From Escherichia phage JS10: a DNA stretch of 64,000 bases. Position 1 is the stretch's first letter; each line of letters begins with the position of its first letter. Shown here piece by piece: positions 3,524 through 17,706 of the stretch. The stretch lies in sequence record EU863409. One strand, 5' to 3'. Position numbers and translations under genes: made by a program. The notes beneath the pieces were generated by a model. It saw only the letters and a program-made list of their open reading frames with translations, was not told where the DNA came from and made no database searches.

Positions 3524-5101
3524 ATGGCAAACTTTAATACAATATTAAGTTTTCTTAAGCCATGGGCTAATGAAGACGAAAAAGAATATAAACAACAATT
3601 AAATAACAATTTAGAGTCTGTCACTGCACCTAAGCTTGATGATGGCGCTCGCGAAATTGAAACCCAAGAGCAAAATATTCCTTATAACGCTCTTATGCAA
3701 CAAATGTTTGGTAGTAATGAGCCTGAAGTTAAAAACACCAGGGAACTCATTGATACCTACCGTAATTTGATGAACAACTATGAAGTCGATAACGCAGTTC
3801 AAGAAATTGTGTCTGACGCTATTGTCTACGAGGATGATAAAGAAGTAGTTGCATTAAATTTAGACGGGACAGATTTCAGTCAATCAATTAAAGATAAAAT
3901 TTTGGCTGAATTTAGTGAAGTTTTGAATCTTTTAAATTTCCAACGTAAAGGCACCGACCATTTCCAACGTTGGTATGTAGACTCGAGAATATTCTTTCAT
4001 AAAATTATAAACCCTAAAAAAATGAAAGATGGCGTACAAGAGCTTCGACGCTTAGACCCGCGCCAAGTCCAATATATTCGTGAAATTGTTACACGTATGG
4101 AAGATGGTGTTAAAATTGTAGATGGGTACCGCGAGTTTTTCGTTTACGATACTGGTCATGAAAGTTATTGTGCTGATGGACGCATTTATTCAGCTGGGAC
4201 TAAAGTTAAAATTCCTCGTGCTGCTGTAGTTTATGCACATTCTGGGTTATTGGATTGTTGTGGTAAAAACATCATTGGCTATTTGCAACGTGCTATTAAG
4301 CCTGCAAACCAGCTTAAATTGATGGAAGATGCAATGGTCATCTATCGTATTACCCGTGCTCCTGACCGTCGTGTATTTTATATCGATACAGGAAATATGC
4401 CTTCTCGTAAGGCTGCAGCACAAATGCAACATATCATGAACACGATGAAAAACCGTGTGGTATATGATGCTTCGACCGGTAAAATTAAAAACCAGCAACA
4501 TAATATGTCAATGACCGAAGACTATTGGTTGCAACGTCGAGACGGTAAAGCGGTAACAGAAGTTGATACCATGCCTGGTGCCACAGGTATGAGTGATATG
4601 GATGACGTTCTTTATTTCCGCACAGCACTTTATCGTGCGCTGCGTATCCCAGAGTCACGTATCCCTAGTGAATCCAATTCCGGTGTTATGTTTGATGCTG
4701 GTACGGCTATAACTCGTGATGAGTTGAAATTTGCTAAATGGATTCGACAGCTCCAAAATAAATTTGAAGAAATTTTCTTAGACCCATTAAAAACAAACCT
4801 CATTCTTAAAAAGATTATTACAGAAGATGAGTGGGAAAGAGAAATAAATAATATTAAAGTTACGTTCAACCGTGATAGCTATTTCAGTGAAATGAAAGAT
4901 GCGGAAATCATGGAACGCAGAATCAATATGCTAACGATGGCTGAACCATTTATTGGTAAGTATATTTCACATCAAACGGCTATGAAAGATTTCCTTCAGA
5001 TGACTGACGAAGAAATTAATCAAGAAGCTAAGCAAATTGAAGAAGAGTCTAAAGAGGCTCGTTTCCAAAACCCAGATGAAGAAGAAGAAGAGGATTTCTA
5101 A
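3524..5101 (+). CDS. 20: portal vertex protein gp20
   Basis: 525 aa, position between 19 and 67; acidic C-terminus ending EEEEEDF. Confidence 0.9.
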
Positions 5102-5376
5102 TGGAAGATTTAATCGAAGCTATTAAATCAAACGACCTCGTAGCAGTTCGTAAAGCAGCAGGCCCGCTTATCGAATCTCGAGTAGCCGCTTTGATTGAAG
5201 CCCGTAAAGCAGAAATTGCTCGCTCCGTTATGATTGAAGGCGAAGAAGCCGATAAAGATGACGAAGACGAAGATAAAGACGAAAAATCCGATAAAGCAGA
5301 TAAGAAAGACAAAAAAGAATCTGACGATGCGGATGAAGGTGATGACGACGATGATGACGACGAGGACGACGAATAA
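5101..5376 (+). CDS. 67: prohead core protein gp67 (polyacidic C-terminus)
   Basis: 91 aa, start overlaps gene 20 stop (TAATG); D/E-rich tail; position as in T4. Confidence 0.6.
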
Positions 5377-7306: not shown

Positions 7307-8866
7307 ATGAAAAAGAATGCATTAGTTCAAAAATGGTCCGCTCTGCTGGAAAACGAAGCTCTTCCTGAAATCGTTGGTGCTTCTAAACAAGCTATCATCG
7401 CTAAAATTTTCGAAAACCAGGAACAAGACATCCTGACTGCCCCGGAATACCGTGACGAAAAAATCTCTGAAGCATTTGGTTCTTTCCTGACCGAAGCTGA
7501 AATCGGTGGTGACCACGGTTATGATGCTACCAATATCGCAGCTGGCCAGACCTCTGGTGCTGTAACTCAGATTGGGCCGGCAGTAATGGGTATGGTTCGT
7601 CGTGCTATTCCTCATCTGATTGCTTTTGATATTTGTGGTGTTCAGCCTCTGAATAACCCTACCGGCCAGGTATTTGCACTGCGTGCAGTATACGGTAAAG
7701 ACCCTATCGCTGCTGGCGCTAAAGAAGCTTTCCACCCGATGTATGCTCCGAATGCTATGTTCTCTGGTCAGGGCGCTGCTCAGACTTTTGAAGCACTGGC
7801 TGCAGGTAAAGTTCTGGAAGTTGGTAAAATTTATTCTCACTTCTTCGAAGCTACCGGTGCTGCACACTTCCAGGCTGTTGAAGCCGTAACCGTTGATGCT
7901 GCTGCTACTGATGCCGCTAAACTGGATGTTGCCGTAACCGCTCTGTTGGAAGCTGGTCAGCTGGCTGAATTGGCTGAAGGTATGGCTACTTCTATCGCTG
8001 AACTTCAGGAAGGCTTTAACGGTTCTCAGGATAACCCGTGGAACGAAATGGGCTTCCGTATCGATAAACAAGTTATCGAAGCTAAATCCCGTCAGCTGAA
8101 AGCAAGCTACTCCATCGAACTGGCACAGGACCTTCGTGCAGTACACGGTATGGATGCAGATGCTGAACTGTCCGGTATCCTTGCTACCGAAATTATGCTC
8201 GAAATCAACCGTGAAGTTATCGATTGGATTAACTACTCTGCACAGGTTGGTAAATCTGGTATGACCAACACCGTTGGCGCTAAAGCTGGTGTGTTTGACT
8301 TCCAGGACCCGATTGATATCCGTGGTGCTCGTTGGGCCGGTGAGAGCTTTAAAGCCCTTCTGTTCCAGATTGATAAAGAAGCAGCCGAAATCGCTCGTCA
8401 GACCGGTCGTGGTGCTGGTAACTTCATCATCGCTTCCCGTAACGTAGTTAACGTACTGGCTGCAGTTGATACTTCTGTAAGTTATGCAGCTCAAGGTCTG
8501 GGTCAAGGTTTCAACGTTGACACCACTAAAGCAGTATTTGCCGGTGTTCTTGGTGGTAAATATCGCGTTTACATCGACCAGTATGCCCGTGCTGATTACT
8601 TCACCATCGGTTATAAAGGTTCCAACGAAATGGACGCAGGTATCTACTACGCTCCTTACGTTGCACTTACCCCACTGCGCGGTTCCGATCCGAAGAACTT
8701 CCAGCCGGTAATGGGCTTCAAAACTCGTTACGGTATCGGTATTAACCCGTTCGCTGACCCGTCTGCACAGGCTCCTACCAAACGTATTCAGAGCGGTATG
8801 CCTGACATCGTTAACAGCCTCGGTCTGAATGGTTACTTCCGTCGCGTTTATGTTAAAGGTATCTAA
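7307..8866 (+). CDS. 23: major capsid protein gp23
   Basis: 519 aa; long stretches match T4 gp23 as recalled (QAIIAKIFENQE, GSFLTEAEIGGDHGY, YAPYVALTPLRGSDPKNFQPVMGFKTRYGIGINPFA, YFRRVYVKGI). Confidence 0.97.
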   Translation: MKKNALVQKWSALLENEALPEIVGASKQAIIAKIFENQEQDILTAPEYRDEKISEAFGSFLTEAEIGGDHGYDATNIAAGQTSGAVTQIGPAVMGMVRRAIPHLIAFDICGVQPLNNPTGQVFALRAVYGKDPIAAGAKEAFHPMYAPNAMFSGQGAAQTFEALAAGKVLEVGKIYSHFFEATGAAHFQAVEAVTVDAAATDAAKLDVAVTALLEAGQLAELAEGMATSIAELQEGFNGSQDNPWNEMGFRIDKQVIEAKSRQLKASYSIELAQDLRAVHGMDADAELSGILATEIMLEINREVIDWINYSAQVGKSGMTNTVGAKAGVFDFQDPIDIRGARWAGESFKALLFQIDKEAAEIARQTGRGAGNFIIASRNVVNVLAAVDTSVSYAAQGLGQGFNVDTTKAVFAGVLGGKYRVYIDQYARADYFTIGYKGSNEMDAGIYYAPYVALTPLRGSDPKNFQPVMGFKTRYGIGINPFADPSAQAPTKRIQSGMPDIVNSLGLNGYFRRVYVKGI

Positions 8867-9283: not shown

Positions 9284-10567
9284 ATGGCAAAGATTAACGA
9301 ATTACTGCGCGAGTCAACAACTACTACCAGCAACTCATTGGGTCGCCCTAATCTTGTTGCTTTGACCCGTGCTACCACTAAACTAATTTATCGCGATATC
9401 ATCGCTGAACAACGTACTAGTCAGCCTATTGCTGCATTGTATGGTGTCAAATATCTTACCCCTGATAATGAATTCAGTTTCCAAACTGGTGCTGTTTATG
9501 GTGGTGAAGTTGGTTCTAAAGACCGTGAAACTATCCCGGAACTCACAGATAAAGCCCAGGCGATTGCCAAGGGTGACTACTTTAAGTATCAGAATGTGGT
9601 TTATAAGGCTCTTCAAGCAAGCCCACTCGCATCCACTAGCGCTACAGGATTGGCCGATGCTCTTCAAGAAGGTTTGGTGTCATTAACATGTCGTCTGGTT
9701 CCTGATGCAGCCCATACCACTAAATTCGAAGCGAGTAATGTAGAAATCTCTGATGCTGTATTCCAGGTTAATAAATGGAATGCTCCTGTTAAGACCCGTA
9801 AATTGAAGACTGCTTTGACTGTAGAATTGGCACAGGATATGGAATCAAATGGCTTCGACGCCCCTGCATTCTTAGAAGACCTCCTGGCTACAGTAATGGC
9901 AGATGAAATTAATAAAGACGTTCTGCAATCTCTGATAACCGTATCTAAACGCTATAAAGTTACCGGTGTATCTGATAATGGCATCATCGATTTGACTTAT
10001 GATAGTGCTCCGGAATCTGCCCGTAAACTTTATGAAATTGTCTGTGAGATGAATTCTGAAATCCAGAAAACTACTTCTTATTCTGGTACGTTTGTTGTGG
10101 CTTCAAGTCGTGTGGCTGCAATGCTTGCAGGTTCTGGCTGGTTAAAACATAGACCTGAAGATAATAATTGGCTCCCGGAAACTGCCTATGGTTATTTGTT
10201 GAATGGATTACCACTGTTCTGTGACGTTAACAGCCCATTGGATTATGTTATCGTAGGTGTTAAAGAGAACTATGGTGGTAATGAAGTTGTCGGTTCTATT
10301 TTCTATGCCCCATATACAGAAGGCCTGGATTTAGACGACCCAGAACACGTTGGTGCTTATAAGGTTATTGTCGACCCGGATTCATTACAGCCTTCTATTT
10401 CTCTGATGGTTCGTTATGCACTTTCGGCTAACCCATACACCGTAGCTAAAGACGACAAAGAAGCTCGTATTATCGACGCAACCAATATGGATTTAATGGC
10501 GGGCCAGAGTAATATGTCTTATCTGCTTGGTGTTAAACTTCCAGCAATTATTTACGAGGCTGATTAA
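9284..10567 (+). CDS. 24: capsid vertex protein gp24 (copy 1)
   Basis: 427 aa (same length as T4 gp24); gp23-like fold signatures (ELAQD, YYAPY); position after 23. Confidence 0.9.
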   Translation: MAKINELLRESTTTTSNSLGRPNLVALTRATTKLIYRDIIAEQRTSQPIAALYGVKYLTPDNEFSFQTGAVYGGEVGSKDRETIPELTDKAQAIAKGDYFKYQNVVYKALQASPLASTSATGLADALQEGLVSLTCRLVPDAAHTTKFEASNVEISDAVFQVNKWNAPVKTRKLKTALTVELAQDMESNGFDAPAFLEDLLATVMADEINKDVLQSLITVSKRYKVTGVSDNGIIDLTYDSAPESARKLYEIVCEMNSEIQKTTSYSGTFVVASSRVAAMLAGSGWLKHRPEDNNWLPETAYGYLLNGLPLFCDVNSPLDYVIVGVKENYGGNEVVGSIFYAPYTEGLDLDDPEHVGAYKVIVDPDSLQPSISLMVRYALSANPYTVAKDDKEARIIDATNMDLMAGQSNMSYLLGVKLPAIIYEAD

Positions 10568-11850
10568 TGTCTAAGATTATAGACCTAATTAAAGAATCCA
10601 CATTGACGGCTGCCAACTCGGTTGGCCGTCCTGCTCTTCTTTCATACACCCAAGCAACTAATAAACGAATCTTTAAAGCCCTAGTTGCTGAACAAAAAAC
10701 AAGCCAACCTGTTGCCGCTCTGTACGGGGTTCGTGTACTTAATCCTGACGACAAAATGACTTATCTTGGTGGCGCTACATTTGCAGGCCAGATTGGTATG
10801 TCGGAACGTGAAAATATTCCTGAATTTACCGATTCGTCTACAGCTTATGCAGCCGGCGATATGTTCCAGTTTGAAAGTGTAGTGTTTAAAGTTCTAGAAG
10901 CATCTCCTTTCGCCGGAACCACAGAAACCGACCTCGGTGAAGTTATTTCTGAAGCAGTGGCCGCTGGGCATATTCGTATGGTATCAGATGCTGCTATTAC
11001 TTCTAAATTTGAACAAGGCCACCCTGAAATTGCTGAAGCAGGCTTCCGTATTGACAAATGGCAATCTGAAGTTAAATCACGTAAACTGAAAACTTCATTG
11101 ACAGTCGAATTGGCCCAAGACCTAGAATCAAACGGGTTTAATGCTCCTAATTTCGTTGAAAATCTGCTAGGCATTCAAATGGCAGAAGAAATTAATAAGG
11201 ACGTATTACAGTCATTAATTACGGTGAGTTCTCGTTTTAAAGTCCAAGGTGTTTCTGAAAAGGGCGTATTAGACCTTACCAACCCACGTTACGATAATGC
11301 CCAGGACCGTGCTCGTACATTATATTATTACATGTGTGAGATGAACTCTGCCGTCCAACGTCAAACTTCTTTCGCCGGGACTTATGCAGTAGCTAGTTCT
11401 CGTTGTGCTGCTATTCTCGCCGCTTCCGGTTGGGTTGAGAAAAAGGAAGACCAAGACGAATTGGCTTATGGTGTATTAAAGAATGGTCTGCCTCTTTATG
11501 CCGATATGAATAGTCCATGTGATTATGTTATTGTTGGTGTAAATGCTCAGATGGGTGAAGGACAGACGGTCGCATCTTTATATTATGCGCCTTATACGGA
11601 AGGTTTGGATGTGGTTGATGAAGAAGGTGATACTTCAGTAGGTGAATTTAAGGTTATTGTTGACCCAGAAAGCTTACAACCTACAGTAGCATTGCTTGCT
11701 CGTTATGCATTGACTGCAAACCCTTATACCGTCGCTAAGGACGATAAAGAAGCCCGCATTATTGATGGCTCTGATATGGACAAAATGGCTAACCAAAGCC
11801 AGTTGAGTTCTTATCTTGGTGTAAAACTTCCTCCATTGGATAAAAACTAA
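10567..11850 (+). CDS. 24: capsid vertex protein gp24 paralogue (copy 2)
   Basis: 427 aa, collinear with copy 1 (TVELAQDLESNGF, DVLQSLITVS, YTVAKDDKEARIID); start overlaps copy 1 stop (TAATG). Confidence 0.85.
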   Translation: MSKIIDLIKESTLTAANSVGRPALLSYTQATNKRIFKALVAEQKTSQPVAALYGVRVLNPDDKMTYLGGATFAGQIGMSERENIPEFTDSSTAYAAGDMFQFESVVFKVLEASPFAGTTETDLGEVISEAVAAGHIRMVSDAAITSKFEQGHPEIAEAGFRIDKWQSEVKSRKLKTSLTVELAQDLESNGFNAPNFVENLLGIQMAEEINKDVLQSLITVSSRFKVQGVSEKGVLDLTNPRYDNAQDRARTLYYYMCEMNSAVQRQTSFAGTYAVASSRCAAILAASGWVEKKEDQDELAYGVLKNGLPLYADMNSPCDYVIVGVNAQMGEGQTVASLYYAPYTEGLDVVDEEGDTSVGEFKVIVDPESLQPTVALLARYALTANPYTVAKDDKEARIIDGSDMDKMANQSQLSSYLGVKLPPLDKN

Positions 11851-13255: not shown

Positions 13256-13370
13256 AAAACCACCATAATAAATATAATTAAATAGAAGAGCTAGTAATCT
13301 TCTGTCACCAAGCCAAATGGTTTAACGGAAGGACCTAGACCCATTATAACACACCTAAATTTAAAGCATA

Positions 13371-13580
13371 TTACTTTGAACTAGAACGCGCTTTGCGCCG
13401 AACCTTGTTGTTCAATCTTTTACGATAAACAACCTTTTCTTTTGATTTAAATTTCTCTTTGGCTTGTTCTACATCGACCCAAGCTTTAGCCATGTCCTTA
13501 GCAGTACCACCTAATTTTTTAGCAATTTCTATAAAATTTAGTCCAGATTCGTGTAAAAAATGTACTTTAACCTTATCCAT
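13371..13580 (-). CDS. hypothetical small basic protein, possible helix-turn-helix
   Basis: ORF 13371..13619, probable start at MDKVKV (13580); GLNFIEIAKKLGGTAKDMAKAW segment; basic C-terminus. Confidence 0.4.
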   Translation of the reverse strand: MDKVKVHFLHESGLNFIEIAKKLGGTAKDMAKAWVDVEQAKEKFKSKEKVVYRKRLNNKVRRKARSSSK

Positions 13581-13609
13581 AACAATTCTCTTGTTGAGTT
13601 GGTAAAGCC

Positions 13610-13639
13610 ATCTTAACATAGGATTTTTAACTTGTAAAC
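13610..13639 (-). promoter_or_regulatory. candidate sigma70-type early promoter (GTTTACA-N17-TAAGAT) for the small HTH-like ORF
   Basis: -35 GTTTACA and a weak -10 read on the minus strand. Confidence 0.3.
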
Positions 13640-13650
13640 AGGAGTATTAA

Positions 13651-14658
13651 ATGGCAGATTCTATTTTTGGTCATGACGGTCGAGGGACCTTTTCCGGTAT
13701 TGCTTTAAAGGAATCGGATACTGTTATCCCTTTTGAAAAAATTCTTACTAAAGAAAGTCTTATAAACCCGGCAAGATTGGTAGGGAGTAATTCGTATGGC
13801 TTAGGCTTGGTTAGTAAATCCGGAAGAGCTGAAGTTCTGGCCCATTTGGGGATAACCGAAGAAATGTTATCCCCTGGTATCCCTGGCCCTAAAGGTGAAA
13901 GCATTGTAGGACCGAGAGGCCCGGCTGGTCCTGTAGGCCCTGTGGGTCTAAATTGGAAAGGAACATGGAGTGCTGCAACAGCCTATGTTAAGGATGATGC
14001 AGTAGGGTACAATGGGGCTTCTTATTTTTGCGTTCAGGATTCTACCGGTAATAATCCTGCTGAAGAAAACAGCCTTTACTGGGCCTTATTGGCTTCTCAG
14101 GGTGCACAAGGCGAACAGGGTATCCCGGGTAAAGATGGTGAGCAGGGTCCGCAAGGTGTTCAAGGTCCTCCTGGGGTGGATGGGATTGATGGACTTGACG
14201 GAGCTACTGGCCCTCTAGGTCCTCAGGGTCCTCAAGGCGAACCTGGTAAAGATGGCACAGATTTGTTTTCATTCCATAAGTATACCAACGTTGCTGCTGG
14301 GTACGGTGAAATAAAAATACCTGGGGTCGCCAATACGGTTCTTAGAGTTAGATTGGTTAACAACCAAATAGAATACAGCATTTTAAGTAAAGGTGGGACT
14401 ACCCGATATTGTGATTATCACTTTGTTGCTCCTAGTGTTTCGGGTGGAACGGTTACTACCGGTGGCGGAACTAAGACTTTGTCTCCTACAGGCTCATTTG
14501 TTATAGTAAGTGCGGCATATAACGGGCTACGTCCTATTAATATAACCTTAAAGGAATGGGGTTCTAAAACAATTTCAGAAATAACAGTATTTCAACACGG
14601 GCGCAGTGTAGATTCTAATAAACCTATATTGGTTAAAATGGTTAGTTTCCCTTATTAA
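13651..14658 (+). CDS. collagen-like (Gly-X-Y repeat) protein with non-collagen N- and C-terminal domains
   Basis: 335 aa; GIPGPKGESIVGPRGPAGPVGPVG and an uninterrupted run of about 18 G-X-Y triplets (GAQGEQGIPGKDGEQGPQGVQGPPGVDGIDGLDGATGPLGPQGPQGEPGKDG); AGGAG RBS. Confidence 0.8.
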   Translation: MADSIFGHDGRGTFSGIALKESDTVIPFEKILTKESLINPARLVGSNSYGLGLVSKSGRAEVLAHLGITEEMLSPGIPGPKGESIVGPRGPAGPVGPVGLNWKGTWSAATAYVKDDAVGYNGASYFCVQDSTGNNPAEENSLYWALLASQGAQGEQGIPGKDGEQGPQGVQGPPGVDGIDGLDGATGPLGPQGPQGEPGKDGTDLFSFHKYTNVAAGYGEIKIPGVANTVLRVRLVNNQIEYSILSKGGTTRYCDYHFVAPSVSGGTVTTGGGTKTLSPTGSFVIVSAAYNGLRPINITLKEWGSKTISEITVFQHGRSVDSNKPILVKMVSFPY

Positions 14659-14669
14659 TTGGAGGTAGC

Positions 14670-15530
14670 ATGTCTATACAAGTAAATGGACCTCATTATG
14701 AATTGGTTGGGAGAACGGTAACTCTTAGGGCTGTTTTATCTGAATCTTTAACTGACGCTGATATAAAATGGTACAAAAACGGTGTAAACGTTCCATTATT
14801 AGATAAAGAAGACCCGATGTATCTAAATCTTTGGGATGTAGGGTTTCCGGCTTCTGGGACCTATTATGCAATAGCAACCGATAAACTTACACAAGAGGTT
14901 TTTCAAAGCGACGATTTTGTTTTAGAAATAGGAATGGAGCCTAGAGATATAGTTATTTCCGTAGAAAATTTAGATGCTATCGTAAAGGCGGCCATAGGTC
15001 AAAAAGTTTCTTTACAACCTTTAATTTCTATGGGTGCCACGCCCTGGGCTGAAGTCGAGTGTGAATGGTGGAAATACGATAAAATGGTTTCAAATGTAAA
15101 GGATTTGGACGTTGATATAAATCCTTCTATGTACGGGACATATTCACTTAATGTTTCTGCTACCGCTGAAGGAGCCTATAATCCGTATCATGATATAGTT
15201 ACGGTAGATATCATGCCTTTAGATGGTATTTTACCAGAACCTGAAGTGTGTCCTTTTATATACTCGAATGATTTAAATCAATATTTGTCTTATCCTGGTG
15301 GAAGAAATAGGGCTCATATGTGGATAGGTTGGTGGGTATTGGATGAGATAAAAGGAGCCCTTGCTAAAGACCAGGATTGGGCTATCAATATAGAAGATAG
15401 CAATTTTAGGTATAAGTGTGAGCTCATGAAAGTGGCAGAACTTTTGTCACGATATCCTGATGTAGAAATACAGGAATCAAGAAATGGATACATTTTGAAT
15501 AGGAAGCACCTGACATTAAATGTCATATAA
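14670..15530 (+). CDS. Hoc-like paralogue: two Ig-like domains plus Hoc-type C-terminal capsid-binding domain
   Basis: 286 aa; GGAGG RBS 12 bp after the collagen-like gene; C-terminus (WIGWWVLDEI...YPDVEIQESRNGYIL) parallels the C-terminus of the 469-aa Hoc. Confidence 0.7.
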   Translation: MSIQVNGPHYELVGRTVTLRAVLSESLTDADIKWYKNGVNVPLLDKEDPMYLNLWDVGFPASGTYYAIATDKLTQEVFQSDDFVLEIGMEPRDIVISVENLDAIVKAAIGQKVSLQPLISMGATPWAEVECEWWKYDKMVSNVKDLDVDINPSMYGTYSLNVSATAEGAYNPYHDIVTVDIMPLDGILPEPEVCPFIYSNDLNQYLSYPGGRNRAHMWIGWWVLDEIKGALAKDQDWAINIEDSNFRYKCELMKVAELLSRYPDVEIQESRNGYILNRKHLTLNVI

Positions 15531-15531
15531 C

Positions 15532-15561
15532 AAAACGGGAGAGCGAAAGCTCTCCCGTTTT
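15532..15561. terminator. bidirectional hairpin AAAACGGGAGAGC-GAAA-GCTCTCCCGTTTT between the convergent hoc-like and hoc genes
   Basis: perfect 13-bp stem with GAAA loop and U-tracts on both strands. Confidence 0.75.
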
Positions 15562-15574
15562 TATTTAGCCAAAA

Positions 15575-16984
15575 TTAGTAAAAATAAATTATACCTGTGT
15601 CAAGAGCCGAACGATGGATAATTCTTCCATTTCGTGATTCTTGTACATCAACCTCTGGATAATCCGCAACCATTTTTTGAAGAGTGTAGCGATGGAGATA
15701 ATAATTGCTATCTGGGTCATCAGTTTTCCAATCTTTACCTTCAAGTGTCATTTTCTGGATTTCATCCATAACCCACCAACCGGCCCAAATATACGCTGAA
15801 TTACGAACCGGCAGCGGATGGACGTAAGGTAGTTCGCCTTCCGGTTCAGGAGCAACTTTAGGCGTAATTGTTACATTACCAGATTTTTTGACAGTCACAG
15901 GATTATAGTCGGTAGCCGAAACCACAACAGAAACTTCAATAACCTGTGAACCTTCAGCACTTGTATCGACTACTAAAGTATCTGTGGTGCCGGCAACAGG
16001 TGAACCATCTTTCTTCCAAGAATATGCAAAAGTAGCACCAGCAGGCGCACCTGCTACGGTAGCTTTAAAAGAAGCTGGAGTTCCTTCCGGAGTATTAATA
16101 GAGGCCGGCGCTAAAGTAACAGAAACACCTGTCATGGTCTTTTTAGTAATTGTTACACTTCCGGTTTTGGTAACGGTTAAATCGTTATAATCCGTACCTT
16201 TTAGGACTACCGAAACTTCAATAGTGTAAGAACCTACTGTAGATGTATCAACAGCAAGGGTATTACTGCTTTCGCCCGGAATAATAGAACCATTTTTCTT
16301 CCAAGAATAAGTTGCATTTACGCCGGAAGGAGCGCCAACTACATCCGCTTTAAACTGTGCAGATGAGCCTTTCTCTGTACTAATTGAGGCTGGTGTTAAA
16401 GTAACGGAAGCACCTGATATAGTTTTCTTAACAAAAGTTACCGCAATACCTTTAGTAGCTGTAGCCGGGTCATATTCAGGGGCGGTAACAGTAACTTCAC
16501 AGTTCAACGTGTAATTTGCTTCTGCTGCTTCAGTTACAGTAATAGTTTTACCAGTTTGACCTGAAATTACAGTTGTATTACGTTTCCAAACATAAGCCAT
16601 TGTAGCGCCAGCAGGGACACCCGATACGTTAGCAGTAACAACTTGGGATTGACCGATTTCTTTAGAAACGGAAGTAGGGTCTAAGGTCAAAGAAAGAGCC
16701 CCAATGGTCTTATTAGCTACAGTAACTTCAAAAGTTTTTTCAGCTACCTCAGGTTCGCCTTCGGTCGGAGTAGAAGTTGCTACTACTTTTAAAACTTTCT
16801 TACCAGCTGGAGCCGCACCGGTATATCTCAAAACATTGGTGGCCTCTGGATTAGAAGCACCGTCAATGGTCCATACATATGTAACGGTTCCTTCTACAGC
16901 TGCACCTGTTGCGGTAGCAGTGTAGTTGGCGCTTTCGCCTATTTTAATAGACGCAGCGCCGGCTATACTTACAGTAAAAGCCAT
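15575..16984 (-). CDS. hoc: Hoc outer capsid decoration protein, four tandem Ig-like domains plus C-terminal capsid-binding domain
   Basis: 469 aa; four repeats of roughly 90 aa with the pattern TYxWKKNG...Y; C-terminal WAGWWVMDEI...YPEVDVQESRNGRII. Confidence 0.85.
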   Translation of the reverse strand: MAFTVSIAGAASIKIGESANYTATATGAAVEGTVTYVWTIDGASNPEATNVLRYTGAAPAGKKVLKVVATSTPTEGEPEVAEKTFEVTVANKTIGALSLTLDPTSVSKEIGQSQVVTANVSGVPAGATMAYVWKRNTTVISGQTGKTITVTEAAEANYTLNCEVTVTAPEYDPATATKGIAVTFVKKTISGASVTLTPASISTEKGSSAQFKADVVGAPSGVNATYSWKKNGSIIPGESSNTLAVDTSTVGSYTIEVSVVLKGTDYNDLTVTKTGSVTITKKTMTGVSVTLAPASINTPEGTPASFKATVAGAPAGATFAYSWKKDGSPVAGTTDTLVVDTSAEGSQVIEVSVVVSATDYNPVTVKKSGNVTITPKVAPEPEGELPYVHPLPVRNSAYIWAGWWVMDEIQKMTLEGKDWKTDDPDSNYYLHRYTLQKMVADYPEVDVQESRNGRIIHRSALDTGIIYFY

Positions 16985-16993
16985 ATTTTACCC

Positions 16994-17665
16994 TTATTTT
17001 AAAGTTACGAAAGATGAATTACGCGTTTCACGTACTAATACTGAACCATTACGATTAATGTAATAAATCAGACTGAATAGTGTTTGGTGGGCAGATGGGT
17101 GTTGGAAATCTTTAGGGCGTTCTTTCCAATCAGGGGTTTCGGTAATCCATTGATAAATCCACCAAGGCACGGTACAATACCCTGGGTTTTTACCAATGAG
17201 TAAAAGATTAGGGCTAAAGTTTTCAGGCAAAGAGAATACAGGTTTTTCCGATTCAATAACCTTGGTTACGGCCTCTTTGAATTTCTCTTCGACAAACGGA
17301 ACATCTTCTTCAATAATCTCTACCTTAGGAAGTTCGGCTACCTCAATAACTTCAACTACTGCTTCAGGGGCATCAAATAATAGGGTAGCTTCTTCTTTGG
17401 CAGGTTCCGCACCATCAACAAATTCGTTAGCGCCTGTGAGTTCGTCGGCGGCATCAATCAAATCAGAAATAGACAAACCTTCGGTTTCTGGAAGTGGTTC
17501 ATCAGCCAAGGCTTTAAGGCCTTCAGAGATATCGATAATCAAATTATCAAACGAACGGGTTTTCTTAAGTTTTAAACCGAATTGTTCGCCGTATTCGATT
17601 AACTTAGCTTTAGCTTCTTTTTTATCTTCGAGTGCACGAAGCTCTTCAATATATTGAGTATCCAT
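16994..17665 (-). CDS. inh: probable Inh (inhibitor of prohead protease)
   Basis: 223 aa (T4 Inh about 226 aa), between hoc and uvsW as in T4; late promoter upstream on the minus strand. Confidence 0.5.
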   Translation of the reverse strand: MDTQYIEELRALEDKKEAKAKLIEYGEQFGLKLKKTRSFDNLIIDISEGLKALADEPLPETEGLSISDLIDAADELTGANEFVDGAEPAKEEATLLFDAPEAVVEVIEVAELPKVEIIEEDVPFVEEKFKEAVTKVIESEKPVFSLPENFSPNLLLIGKNPGYCTVPWWIYQWITETPDWKERPKDFQHPSAHQTLFSLIYYINRNGSVLVRETRNSSFVTLK

Positions 17666-17684
17666 AATTAGTCTCTTGTTGGTG

Positions 17685-17706
17685 TATAAATATAATTATA
17701 TTTATA
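17685..17706. promoter_or_regulatory. divergent late promoters: TATAAATA (plus, 17685..17692) for uvsW and TATAAATA (minus, 17699..17706) for inh-hoc
   Basis: two exact late boxes in opposite orientation within 22 bp. Confidence 0.55.

Follow-up and report, generated by a model that had tools for sequence, protein, structure and literature searches.

A short second Hoc-type protein of Escherichia phage JS10, its collagen-like fibre partner gene and a Hoc-type domain in Inh

Hoc is a non-enzymatic decoration protein and the main handle for display on the T4 capsid; it has been proposed to mediate adherence to mucus and cells. The T4 protein comprises three immunoglobulin-like (Ig) domains followed by a C-terminal domain (C-domain), and the capsid carries one Hoc per hexon (PMC10385173). 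The residues of T4 Hoc that contact the capsid protein gp23* or hold the central loop are Y293, H295, R300, Y304, W306, W309, W310, D313, Q354, E355-G359 and Y360 (PMC10385173). Hoc from RB49 decorates T4 hoc- capsids (PMC10385173), indicating that the same site can be used by diverged C-domains. A second, shorter Hoc of 314 amino acids (aa) with two Ig domains and a C-domain has been described in Serratia phage Muldoon, and Enterobacter phage PG7 has two Hoc-like proteins (Fokine et al. 2023, PMC10385173). The same paper puts forward reuse of the C-domain as a means of displaying other ligands. The DNA considered here is a 64,000-nucleotide (nt) stretch of Escherichia phage JS10 (record EU863409; the whole stretch is called the window). 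In it two Hoc-type genes converge: hoc2, which encodes a short protein with two Ig domains and a C-domain, and hoc, which encodes a four-Ig protein on the opposite strand (Table 1).

The second-Hoc phenomenon has already been annotated and published (2023); it is not new, and the finding itself is therefore ordinary. Hoc2 matches, at 100% identity, the JS10 entry called 'hoc head outer capsid protein' at NCBI, and the gene is likewise annotated hoc in IME08, dhabil, dhaeg and CLB_P2. The label of the orthologue is 'Hoc I' in CGG4-1; Aeromonas phage 65 lists it as 'hoc-2, second copy of the hoc gene'. What goes beyond the known second Hoc is the cassette that hoc2 forms with a collagen-like fibre gene, and a Hoc-type domain in the neighbouring protein Inh. 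Neither was found in the literature searched, which makes no mention of a short Hoc linked to a collagen-like fibre gene, of a conserved first Ig domain (Ig1) in such a protein, or of a link between Inh and Hoc. On two hoc genes, a collagen-Hoc link and Inh-Hoc homology the only relevant paper in that literature is Fokine et al. 2023; Petrov 2010 and Rao & Black 2010 contain no relevant mention. A first-pass annotation of the window gave the positions, strands and lengths of both genes correctly. It missed the prior annotation and publication, the age of the hoc2 family, the pairing with the fibre gene and the C-domain copy in Inh.

Hoc2 and Hoc of phage JS10

The C-termini of the two JS10 proteins are homologous, as the first-pass annotation had claimed. 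BLASTP aligns Hoc2 with Hoc over 196 aa comprising the last Ig domain and the C-terminus (E=4e-20, 29% identity), and the C-domains alone share 35 of 87 residues (40%). Both proteins match PHROG 1149, 'Hoc-like head decoration', and residues 122-284 of Hoc2 align with residues 218-370 of T4 Hoc in the Protein Data Bank (PDB; 5vf3_Z, E=1e-16 with phmmer). The local copy of Pfam yields no match for Hoc2 or for Inh. An AlphaFold2 model of Hoc2, built from a 20-sequence alignment, has a mean predicted local distance difference test score (pLDDT) of 88.4. It consists of two beta-sandwich domains (residues 1-88 and 94-183, pLDDT >90), a poorly defined linker and a beta/alpha C-domain (199-286). In the DNA these correspond to ~14670-14933 for Ig1, ~14949-15218 for the second Ig domain (Ig2) and ~15264-15527 for the C-domain. 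The best Foldseek match of the model in the PDB is to the three Ig domains of RB49 Hoc (3shs, E=3.5e-12), and two-Ig receptors come next. Hoc2 is acidic, with an isoelectric point (pI) of 4.5 and a charge of -19, compared with a pI of 5.2 for JS10 Hoc and 4.7 for T4 Hoc.

The longer protein matches T4 Hoc (5vf3_Z) with E=2e-112. It is built from four in-register repeats of 285 nt (95 aa), of which the third and fourth Ig domains are 61% identical, followed by the capsid-binding C-domain at ~377-469. Its Pfam matches are Ig_3, I-set and Ig_2. JS10 Hoc can be aligned to T4 Hoc over residues 1-105 and 194-469, and it thus has one extra Ig unit. The counts of two Ig domains in Hoc2, seen in the model, and four in Hoc, seen in the repeats, agree with those proposed from the open reading frames alone. 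The same holds for the comparison with T4, which has a hoc gene at one place only, encoding three Ig domains and a C-domain (PMC10385173).

The hoc2 gene is intact and under purifying selection. A Shine-Dalgarno sequence, GGAGG, lies 5 nt 5' of its ATG, and the stop codon of the fibre gene is 11 nt before its start. In the closely related phage Esco_phi_B-01 hoc2 is intact as well. The two copies differ by ~47 synonymous and 20 non-synonymous changes, and the ratio of non-synonymous to synonymous rates (dN/dS) is 0.096.

The surface with which T4 Hoc binds the capsid is largely retained. Hoc2 of JS10 is identical to T4 Hoc at 13 of the 15 contact and ESRNG-loop residues. Its W221 and W222 form the equivalent of the conserved WW helix start, R212 and D225 are the counterparts of R300 and D313, and E269-G273 make up the ESRNG loop. 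Among ten proteins of the Hoc2 family R300, W310, D313, E355, S356, R357 and G359 are invariant. On the capsid side, the segment of JS10 gp23 that matches residues 326-344 of the T4 protein differs only by S327A and retains D336, P337 and R344. These contact residues, the gp23 segment, the acidity of the protein, the purifying selection and the RB49 precedent make capsid binding at hexamer centres, in competition with Hoc, the most likely function of Hoc2 as judged from sequence. Hoc2 is thus probably a functional second decoration protein of the Hoc family, which carries two Ig domains on a capsid-binding C-domain and competes for the hexamer centres.

After capsid expansion the C-domain of Hoc2 would dock at the centre of a gp23* hexamer, one molecule per hexamer, at the site that also serves the four-Ig Hoc from the opposite strand. 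With one molecule per hexamer at a common site, the ~155 sites would be shared by the two Hocs. The capsid would then bear a long decoration at some sites and a short, very acidic one at others, with expression and affinity determining the proportions. Competition for one site or a mixed decoration layer, both suggested in the first-pass annotation, are plausible outcomes.

The hoc2 family and its collagen-like fibre partner

Hoc2 belongs to a distinct, old orthologous family of ~265-290 aa proteins found in several T4-like genera. Full-length orthologues with 30-50% identity occur in Dhakavirus, Gelderlandvirus (CGG4-1), Gaprivervirus (TH15), Roskildevirus (FBB1, Cronus), Biquartavirus (AhFM11), Ishigurovirus (phage 65) and Pantoea phage Phynn, and on metagenome contigs. 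The orthologous group is defined here and is not a named family. Its members combine an Ig1 of the pattern GPxY...WYK...LWDVxYPAxGxY...LEIG, an Ig2 and a Hoc C-domain with an upstream gene for a fibre carrying FGHDGRG, and JS10 has all of these traits. Hoc-type matches as a whole lie at 1,119 places in 1,086 phage records, and several Hoc-type genes per genome are uncommon but not rare. Variation in Ig copy number among related genomes, a comparison proposed at the outset, is common. The lengths of Hoc-type proteins extend from 178 aa in AhFM11 through 284 aa on a metagenome contig, 377 aa in IME08, 470 aa in dhabil and 473 aa in ABTNLsp5 to ~1,170 aa among cluster representatives, and CGG4-1 has proteins of both 279 and 944 aa. 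A full-library HMMER search with a Hoc2 profile was swamped by giant multi-Ig proteins, leaving only its counts usable; it returned ~15 short full-length cluster representatives.

Within this family hoc2 comes second in a conserved cassette of two genes, after a gene for a collagen-like fibre. The JS10 fibre protein consists of an N-terminal domain (N-domain) at residues 1-75 (FGHDGRG...LGITEEML), two Gly-X-Y stretches flanking a CBM5/12-like motif, and a variable C-terminal domain. It matches Collagen (1.2e-10) and CBM_5_12 (7e-5) in Pfam and PHROG 5073, 'tail fiber protein' (1e-69); in the PDB and NCBIfam only the collagen repeats are matched. Throughout the fibre family the N-domain of ~75 aa (FGHDGRG...LGITxEML) is conserved, is usually followed by collagen Gly-X-Y repeats, and precedes a variable C-terminus. 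In every intact case, covering ~16 lineages from at least 6 genera as well as metagenome contigs, the fibre gene lies immediately 5' of a hoc2-type gene on the same strand. The gap is at most 11 nt, or the stop and start codons overlap. The convergent arrangement of fibre-hoc2 and hoc-inh is kept as far as the Aeromonas phages.

The two components also occur together when they are searched for separately. Among 50,697 phage records the Ig1 of Hoc2 is present in 22 and the fibre N-domain in 21, with both in 18 at the thresholds used. The remaining four Ig1 records contain the N-domain too when closer queries are applied, and the records with the N-domain only are degraded remnants (PspYZU05 and AP1). 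A search for the fibre N-domain in IMG/VR and JGI metagenomes yielded only three known genomes and one new contig. In IME08 both genes are kept although they are no longer adjacent, the fibre gene now standing after gene 24b.

In IME08 a 13-codon remnant of the 5' end of a fibre gene (locus positions 2850-2888) directly precedes hoc2. The fibre N-domain in the same phage (24-230) precedes the annotated start of a 'tail fiber protein' at 233 and is read in another frame, which could reflect a mis-annotated start or a frameshift. In Pseudomonas phage PspYZU05 (locus 4501-5165) the only Hoc-type gene annotated in the region encodes 132 aa, a C-domain lacking a full Ig domain. A fragment of the fibre N-domain, broken by a stop codon, stands in front of it, and hoc is missing from the interval between rnlB and inh. 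The locus has the look of a decayed fibre-hoc2 pair.

The pairing leads to a tentative extension of the decoration model, in which Hoc2 would be the capsid anchor of a two-component head fibre. The C-domain would sit on the hexamer, the distal Ig1 would dock the N-domain of a trimeric fibre, and the variable fibre C-terminus would be the ligand-binding tip. Consistent with such an adaptor are the strict position of the fibre gene 5' of hoc2 and the near-perfect co-occurrence of Ig1 with the fibre N-domain, which holds in IME08 even without adjacency. The distal Ig1 is also better conserved than Ig2 (mean pairwise identity in the Hoc2 family 39% and 28%, respectively, with 53% for the C-domain), and the fibre N-domain better than the fibre C-terminus (38% versus 27%). 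In Hoc2 of Cronus Ig2 has been lost but Ig1 and the C-domain remain, and the fibre gene beside it is intact. In a mirror-tree comparison the distances between fibre N-domains follow those of Ig1 best (r=0.70), followed by Ig2 (0.60) and the C-domain (0.25). This pattern fits co-evolution, but the correlations fall in gene order, and linkage decay alone would give the same result. All of the evidence is genomic. Between JS10 and Esco_phi_B-01 hoc2 has been swapped independently of the fibre gene (8% versus 0.5% divergence). Annotation places the fibre family among the tail fibres (PHROG 5073), and its attachment point could be another part of the virion; a trimer on a monomeric Ig domain would also require asymmetric binding. 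A dedicated adaptor role for Hoc2 is possible but doubtful. The same degree of doubt applies to the broader idea that the Hoc C-domain is a general gp23-hexamer 'plug', reused with different cargo by at least three neighbouring genes (hoc2, hoc and inh).

Probable docking site of Hoc2 and origin of its gene

A number of observations weigh against Hoc2 as a functional decoration protein at the Hoc site. Two of the contact residues are changed, H295N and Y304H. The beta1-beta2 loop that carries R300 contains a 9-residue insertion, and the model of this loop is of low confidence (residues 206-210, pLDDT <50). With such an insertion and loop model, the affinity or site preference of Hoc2 could differ from that of Hoc. 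No virion proteomics or binding data for Hoc2 of any phage were found in the literature searched. The T4-type late promoter box TATAAATA is absent from the 120 nt 5' of the fibre-hoc2 operon in JS10, and the same is true of dhabil.

Hoc2 might instead bind another capsid position, such as special hexamers, or another partner, so that the two Hocs would not compete. The altered loop and the two substitutions would fit this alternative. Vertex-proximal hexamers impose preferred orientations on Hoc (PMC10385173), and the sites are therefore not all equivalent. Inh, described below, offers an example of the domain being recruited to other roles. Against a separate site stands the retention in Hoc2 of the ESRNG loop, the WW helix start and the equivalents of R300, D313 and Q354, together with the conserved docking segment of gp23. 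Moreover, many proteins of the Hoc2 family, among them those of phage 65, FBB1, AS4 and Phynn, lack the insertion and have a T4-like YxHxL motif. A site or partner other than that of Hoc is thus unlikely, and docking at the hexamer centre remains the preferred reading.

The origin of hoc2 lies far back. Between the Ig domains of Hoc2 and those of the adjacent Hoc, identity is no more than 15-26%, and a recent local duplication of hoc was rejected on this ground. The first-pass annotation named a pseudogene fragment as one finding that would overturn its view of hoc2. A decaying fragment left by a duplication of hoc would be in keeping with the smaller size of hoc2, with the lack of a visible late promoter in JS10, and with its absence from many Dhakavirus genomes (36-51% query coverage). 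This explanation is contradicted already by the full-length open reading frame with its strong Shine-Dalgarno sequence, by dN/dS of 0.096 over 67 substitutions, by full-length orthologues in several genera with 33 invariant alignment columns, and by the low identity between the Ig domains of Hoc2 and Hoc. It was rejected as highly improbable.

Weakest of all is the suggestion, also made in the first-pass annotation, that the shared domain serves inversion or recombination, which here would concern the segment in between. The homologous coding segments are indeed inverted and ~45-400 nt apart, but the DNA of the two C-domains is 53% identical and no exact match between them exceeds 11 nt. Their orientation is the same in all relatives examined and no recombinase gene is present at the locus. 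This proposal is hardly credible and is the one part of the earlier interpretation to fall, whereas the C-domain homology, the Ig counts, the hairpin between the genes and the single Hoc of T4 stand. Over the ESRNG and GWW motifs lie the top inverted matches in the DNA, one of 36 nt (81%) and one of 34 nt (79%).

A different kind of exchange is visible between JS10 and Esco_phi_B-01. The two phages are otherwise near-identical, but over 14700-15560 (hoc2 and the terminator) they diverge evenly by 7-9%. Identity on the flanks is 99.5% in the fibre gene and ~97.5% in hoc and inh. The divergent patch between near-identical flanks indicates that hoc2 has been exchanged as a cassette by recombination. 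One of the differences between the two Hoc2 proteins, N200H, restores the T4-like His295.

Inh, the surrounding locus and comparison with known systems

A third copy of the Hoc-type C-domain is found at residues 159-219 of Inh, which annotations of related phages describe as a minor head protein that inhibits the prohead protease. The region matches PHROG 1149 with E=9e-5, and BLASTP against Hoc and Hoc2 gives collinear, weak matches. The C-terminal alignment of Inh with Hoc reads KNPGYCTVPWWIYQWI...DWK...VRETRNSSF versus RNSAYIWAGWWVMDEI...DWK...VQESRNGRI. When an alignment of 8 Inh sequences is compared by hhalign with one of 18 Hoc and Hoc2 C-domains, the probability is 96.6% (E=5.8e-10). 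In the AlphaFold2 model of Inh the C-terminal 75 residues have pLDDT values of 80-89 and the strand-helix-helix-strand-strand order of the Hoc C-domain. A Foldseek search of 350,542 PDB chains with this model gives a sole meaningful match, 8t1x_X (probability 0.99, template modelling (TM) score 0.52; next probability 0.11), which is the T4 Hoc C-domain on the gp23* capsomer. Pfam places the C-terminal region of Inh in a family of its own, PF26098 (Phage_Inh_C). With this domain at the end of Inh, hoc2, hoc and inh are three genes in a row built on one gp23-docking module.

Table 1. Features of the hoc2-hoc-inh locus and the gene for its presumed capsid partner in the JS10 window
Feature	Position	Strand	Basis or remark
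Gene 23, major capsid protein, presumed Hoc docking partner	7307..8866	+	Comparison with T4 segment 326-344
Collagen-like fibre gene, 335 aa	13651..14658	+	Open reading frame, Pfam, PHROG; first gene of the fibre-hoc2 pair
hoc2, short Hoc paralogue, 286 aa	14670..15530	+	Open reading frame, homology, fold
Predicted bidirectional intrinsic-terminator hairpin, 13-bp stem, 4-nt loop	15532..15561	both	Inverted repeat, folding
hoc, canonical Hoc orthologue, 469 aa	15575..16984	-	Open reading frame, T4 Hoc match
inh, 223 aa	16994..17665	-	PHROG 1051 match, 6e-91
T4-type late promoter box TATAAATA	17699..17706	-	34 nt 5' of the inh start codon

The best DNA match of the region 13300-17700 is Esco_phi_B-01 (96.6% identity), and the matches are Dhakavirus genomes (T4-like, Straboviridae, Tevenvirinae), the genus to which the coliphage JS10 itself belongs. 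The gene order is T4-like: gene 23 is followed by two gene 24 paralogues, rnlB, 24.2- and 24.3-like genes, hoc, inh and uvsW. The tandem paralogues of gene 24 (head vertex protein), at 9284-10567 and 10567-11850 on the plus strand, encode 427 aa each and are identical at 243 of 433 positions. T4 has one gene 24; the doubling is annotated likewise in IME08, CGG4-1, ABTNLsp5 and Cronus. In FBB1 and Cronus the fibre-hoc2 pair directly follows gene 24.

The ends of hoc2 and hoc are 44 nt apart, and the hairpin between them has the properties of a terminator acting in both directions, as first proposed. Its arms, at 15532-15544 and 15549-15561, are 13 nt each and 100% complementary. The two strands fold with predicted energies of -23.1 and -22.7 kcal/mol (z = -7.5 and -6.0, respectively), and no shuffled sequence is equally stable. 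A U-rich run follows on each strand (UUUUUAUUU on the plus strand, UUUUGUUAU on the minus strand), and terminator detection is positive on both. The convergent units fibre-hoc2 and inh-hoc would thus both end at this common hairpin.

The timing of expression is inferred from promoter boxes. The pattern TATAAATA occurs 17 times in the window compared with 6.8 expected. With such a box 34 nt upstream of inh, the inh-hoc transcript is probably late and terminated at the hairpin, and inh is probably co-transcribed with hoc. For the fibre-hoc2 pair a TATAAATA box is found upstream in TH15, ABTNLsp5 and Phynn. In TH15 and ABTNLsp5 it precedes the fibre gene in the context 'ACTTGTAAACAG', and JS10 (13600-13650) and dhabil have the same context without the box. 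The 55-nt region between inh and uvsW contains back-to-back TATAAATA boxes, the plus-strand one at 17685-17692 and the minus-strand one upstream of inh, and this arrangement suggests that uvsW and inh-hoc are transcribed divergently as late units.

Two Hoc-type proteins for one site, in coliphages of the therapeutic type (JS10, CLB_P2, IME08), would bear on surface chemistry, antigenicity and use in display. Given the strict pairing of a short Hoc with a gene for a collagen-like fibre, a head fibre is predicted in T4-like phages. If the adaptor model is true, the head fibres carried by a subset of these phages would be collagen-like, modular and exchangeable. The Hoc-type C-domain in Inh, in turn, predicts a capsid-docking step for the protease inhibitor.

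Among the known systems the long JS10 Hoc is the direct orthologue of T4 Hoc. Hoc2 resembles T4 Hoc (5vf3, 8t1x) and RB49 Hoc (3shs) in its string of Ig domains with a C-terminal domain of the gp23*-hexamer-binding type, including the WW helix and the ESRNG loop, and shares with the T4 protein its acidic character. It differs from T4 Hoc in having two Ig domains instead of three and a loop insertion before R300. It is also the partner of a collagen-like fibre gene on the strand opposite hoc, and T4 has no such gene. Inh of T4 (gp21 inhibitor; PF26097, PF26098) is like Hoc and Hoc2 in its C-terminal ~65 residues, which are homologous and include the WW helix start and the E(T/S)RN loop. In contrast to Hoc, Inh has a helical or disordered N-terminal part without Ig domains and another reported role, and W306, D313, G359 and Y360 are replaced. 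The SPP1 protein gp12 is a collagen-like decoration protein at hexamer centres and provides a precedent for a collagen-like trimer displayed from a capsid. It binds the capsid directly, whereas in JS10 the capsid-binding module lies on a separate protein, Hoc2, and the link between fibre and capsid is hypothetical. The hoc-2 gene of Aeromonas phage 65 is a true orthologue of JS10 hoc2, with 33% identity over 98% of its length. Serratia phage Muldoon and Enterobacter phage PG7, like JS10, combine a long Hoc with an extra short Hoc-type protein that reuses the capsid-binding domain.

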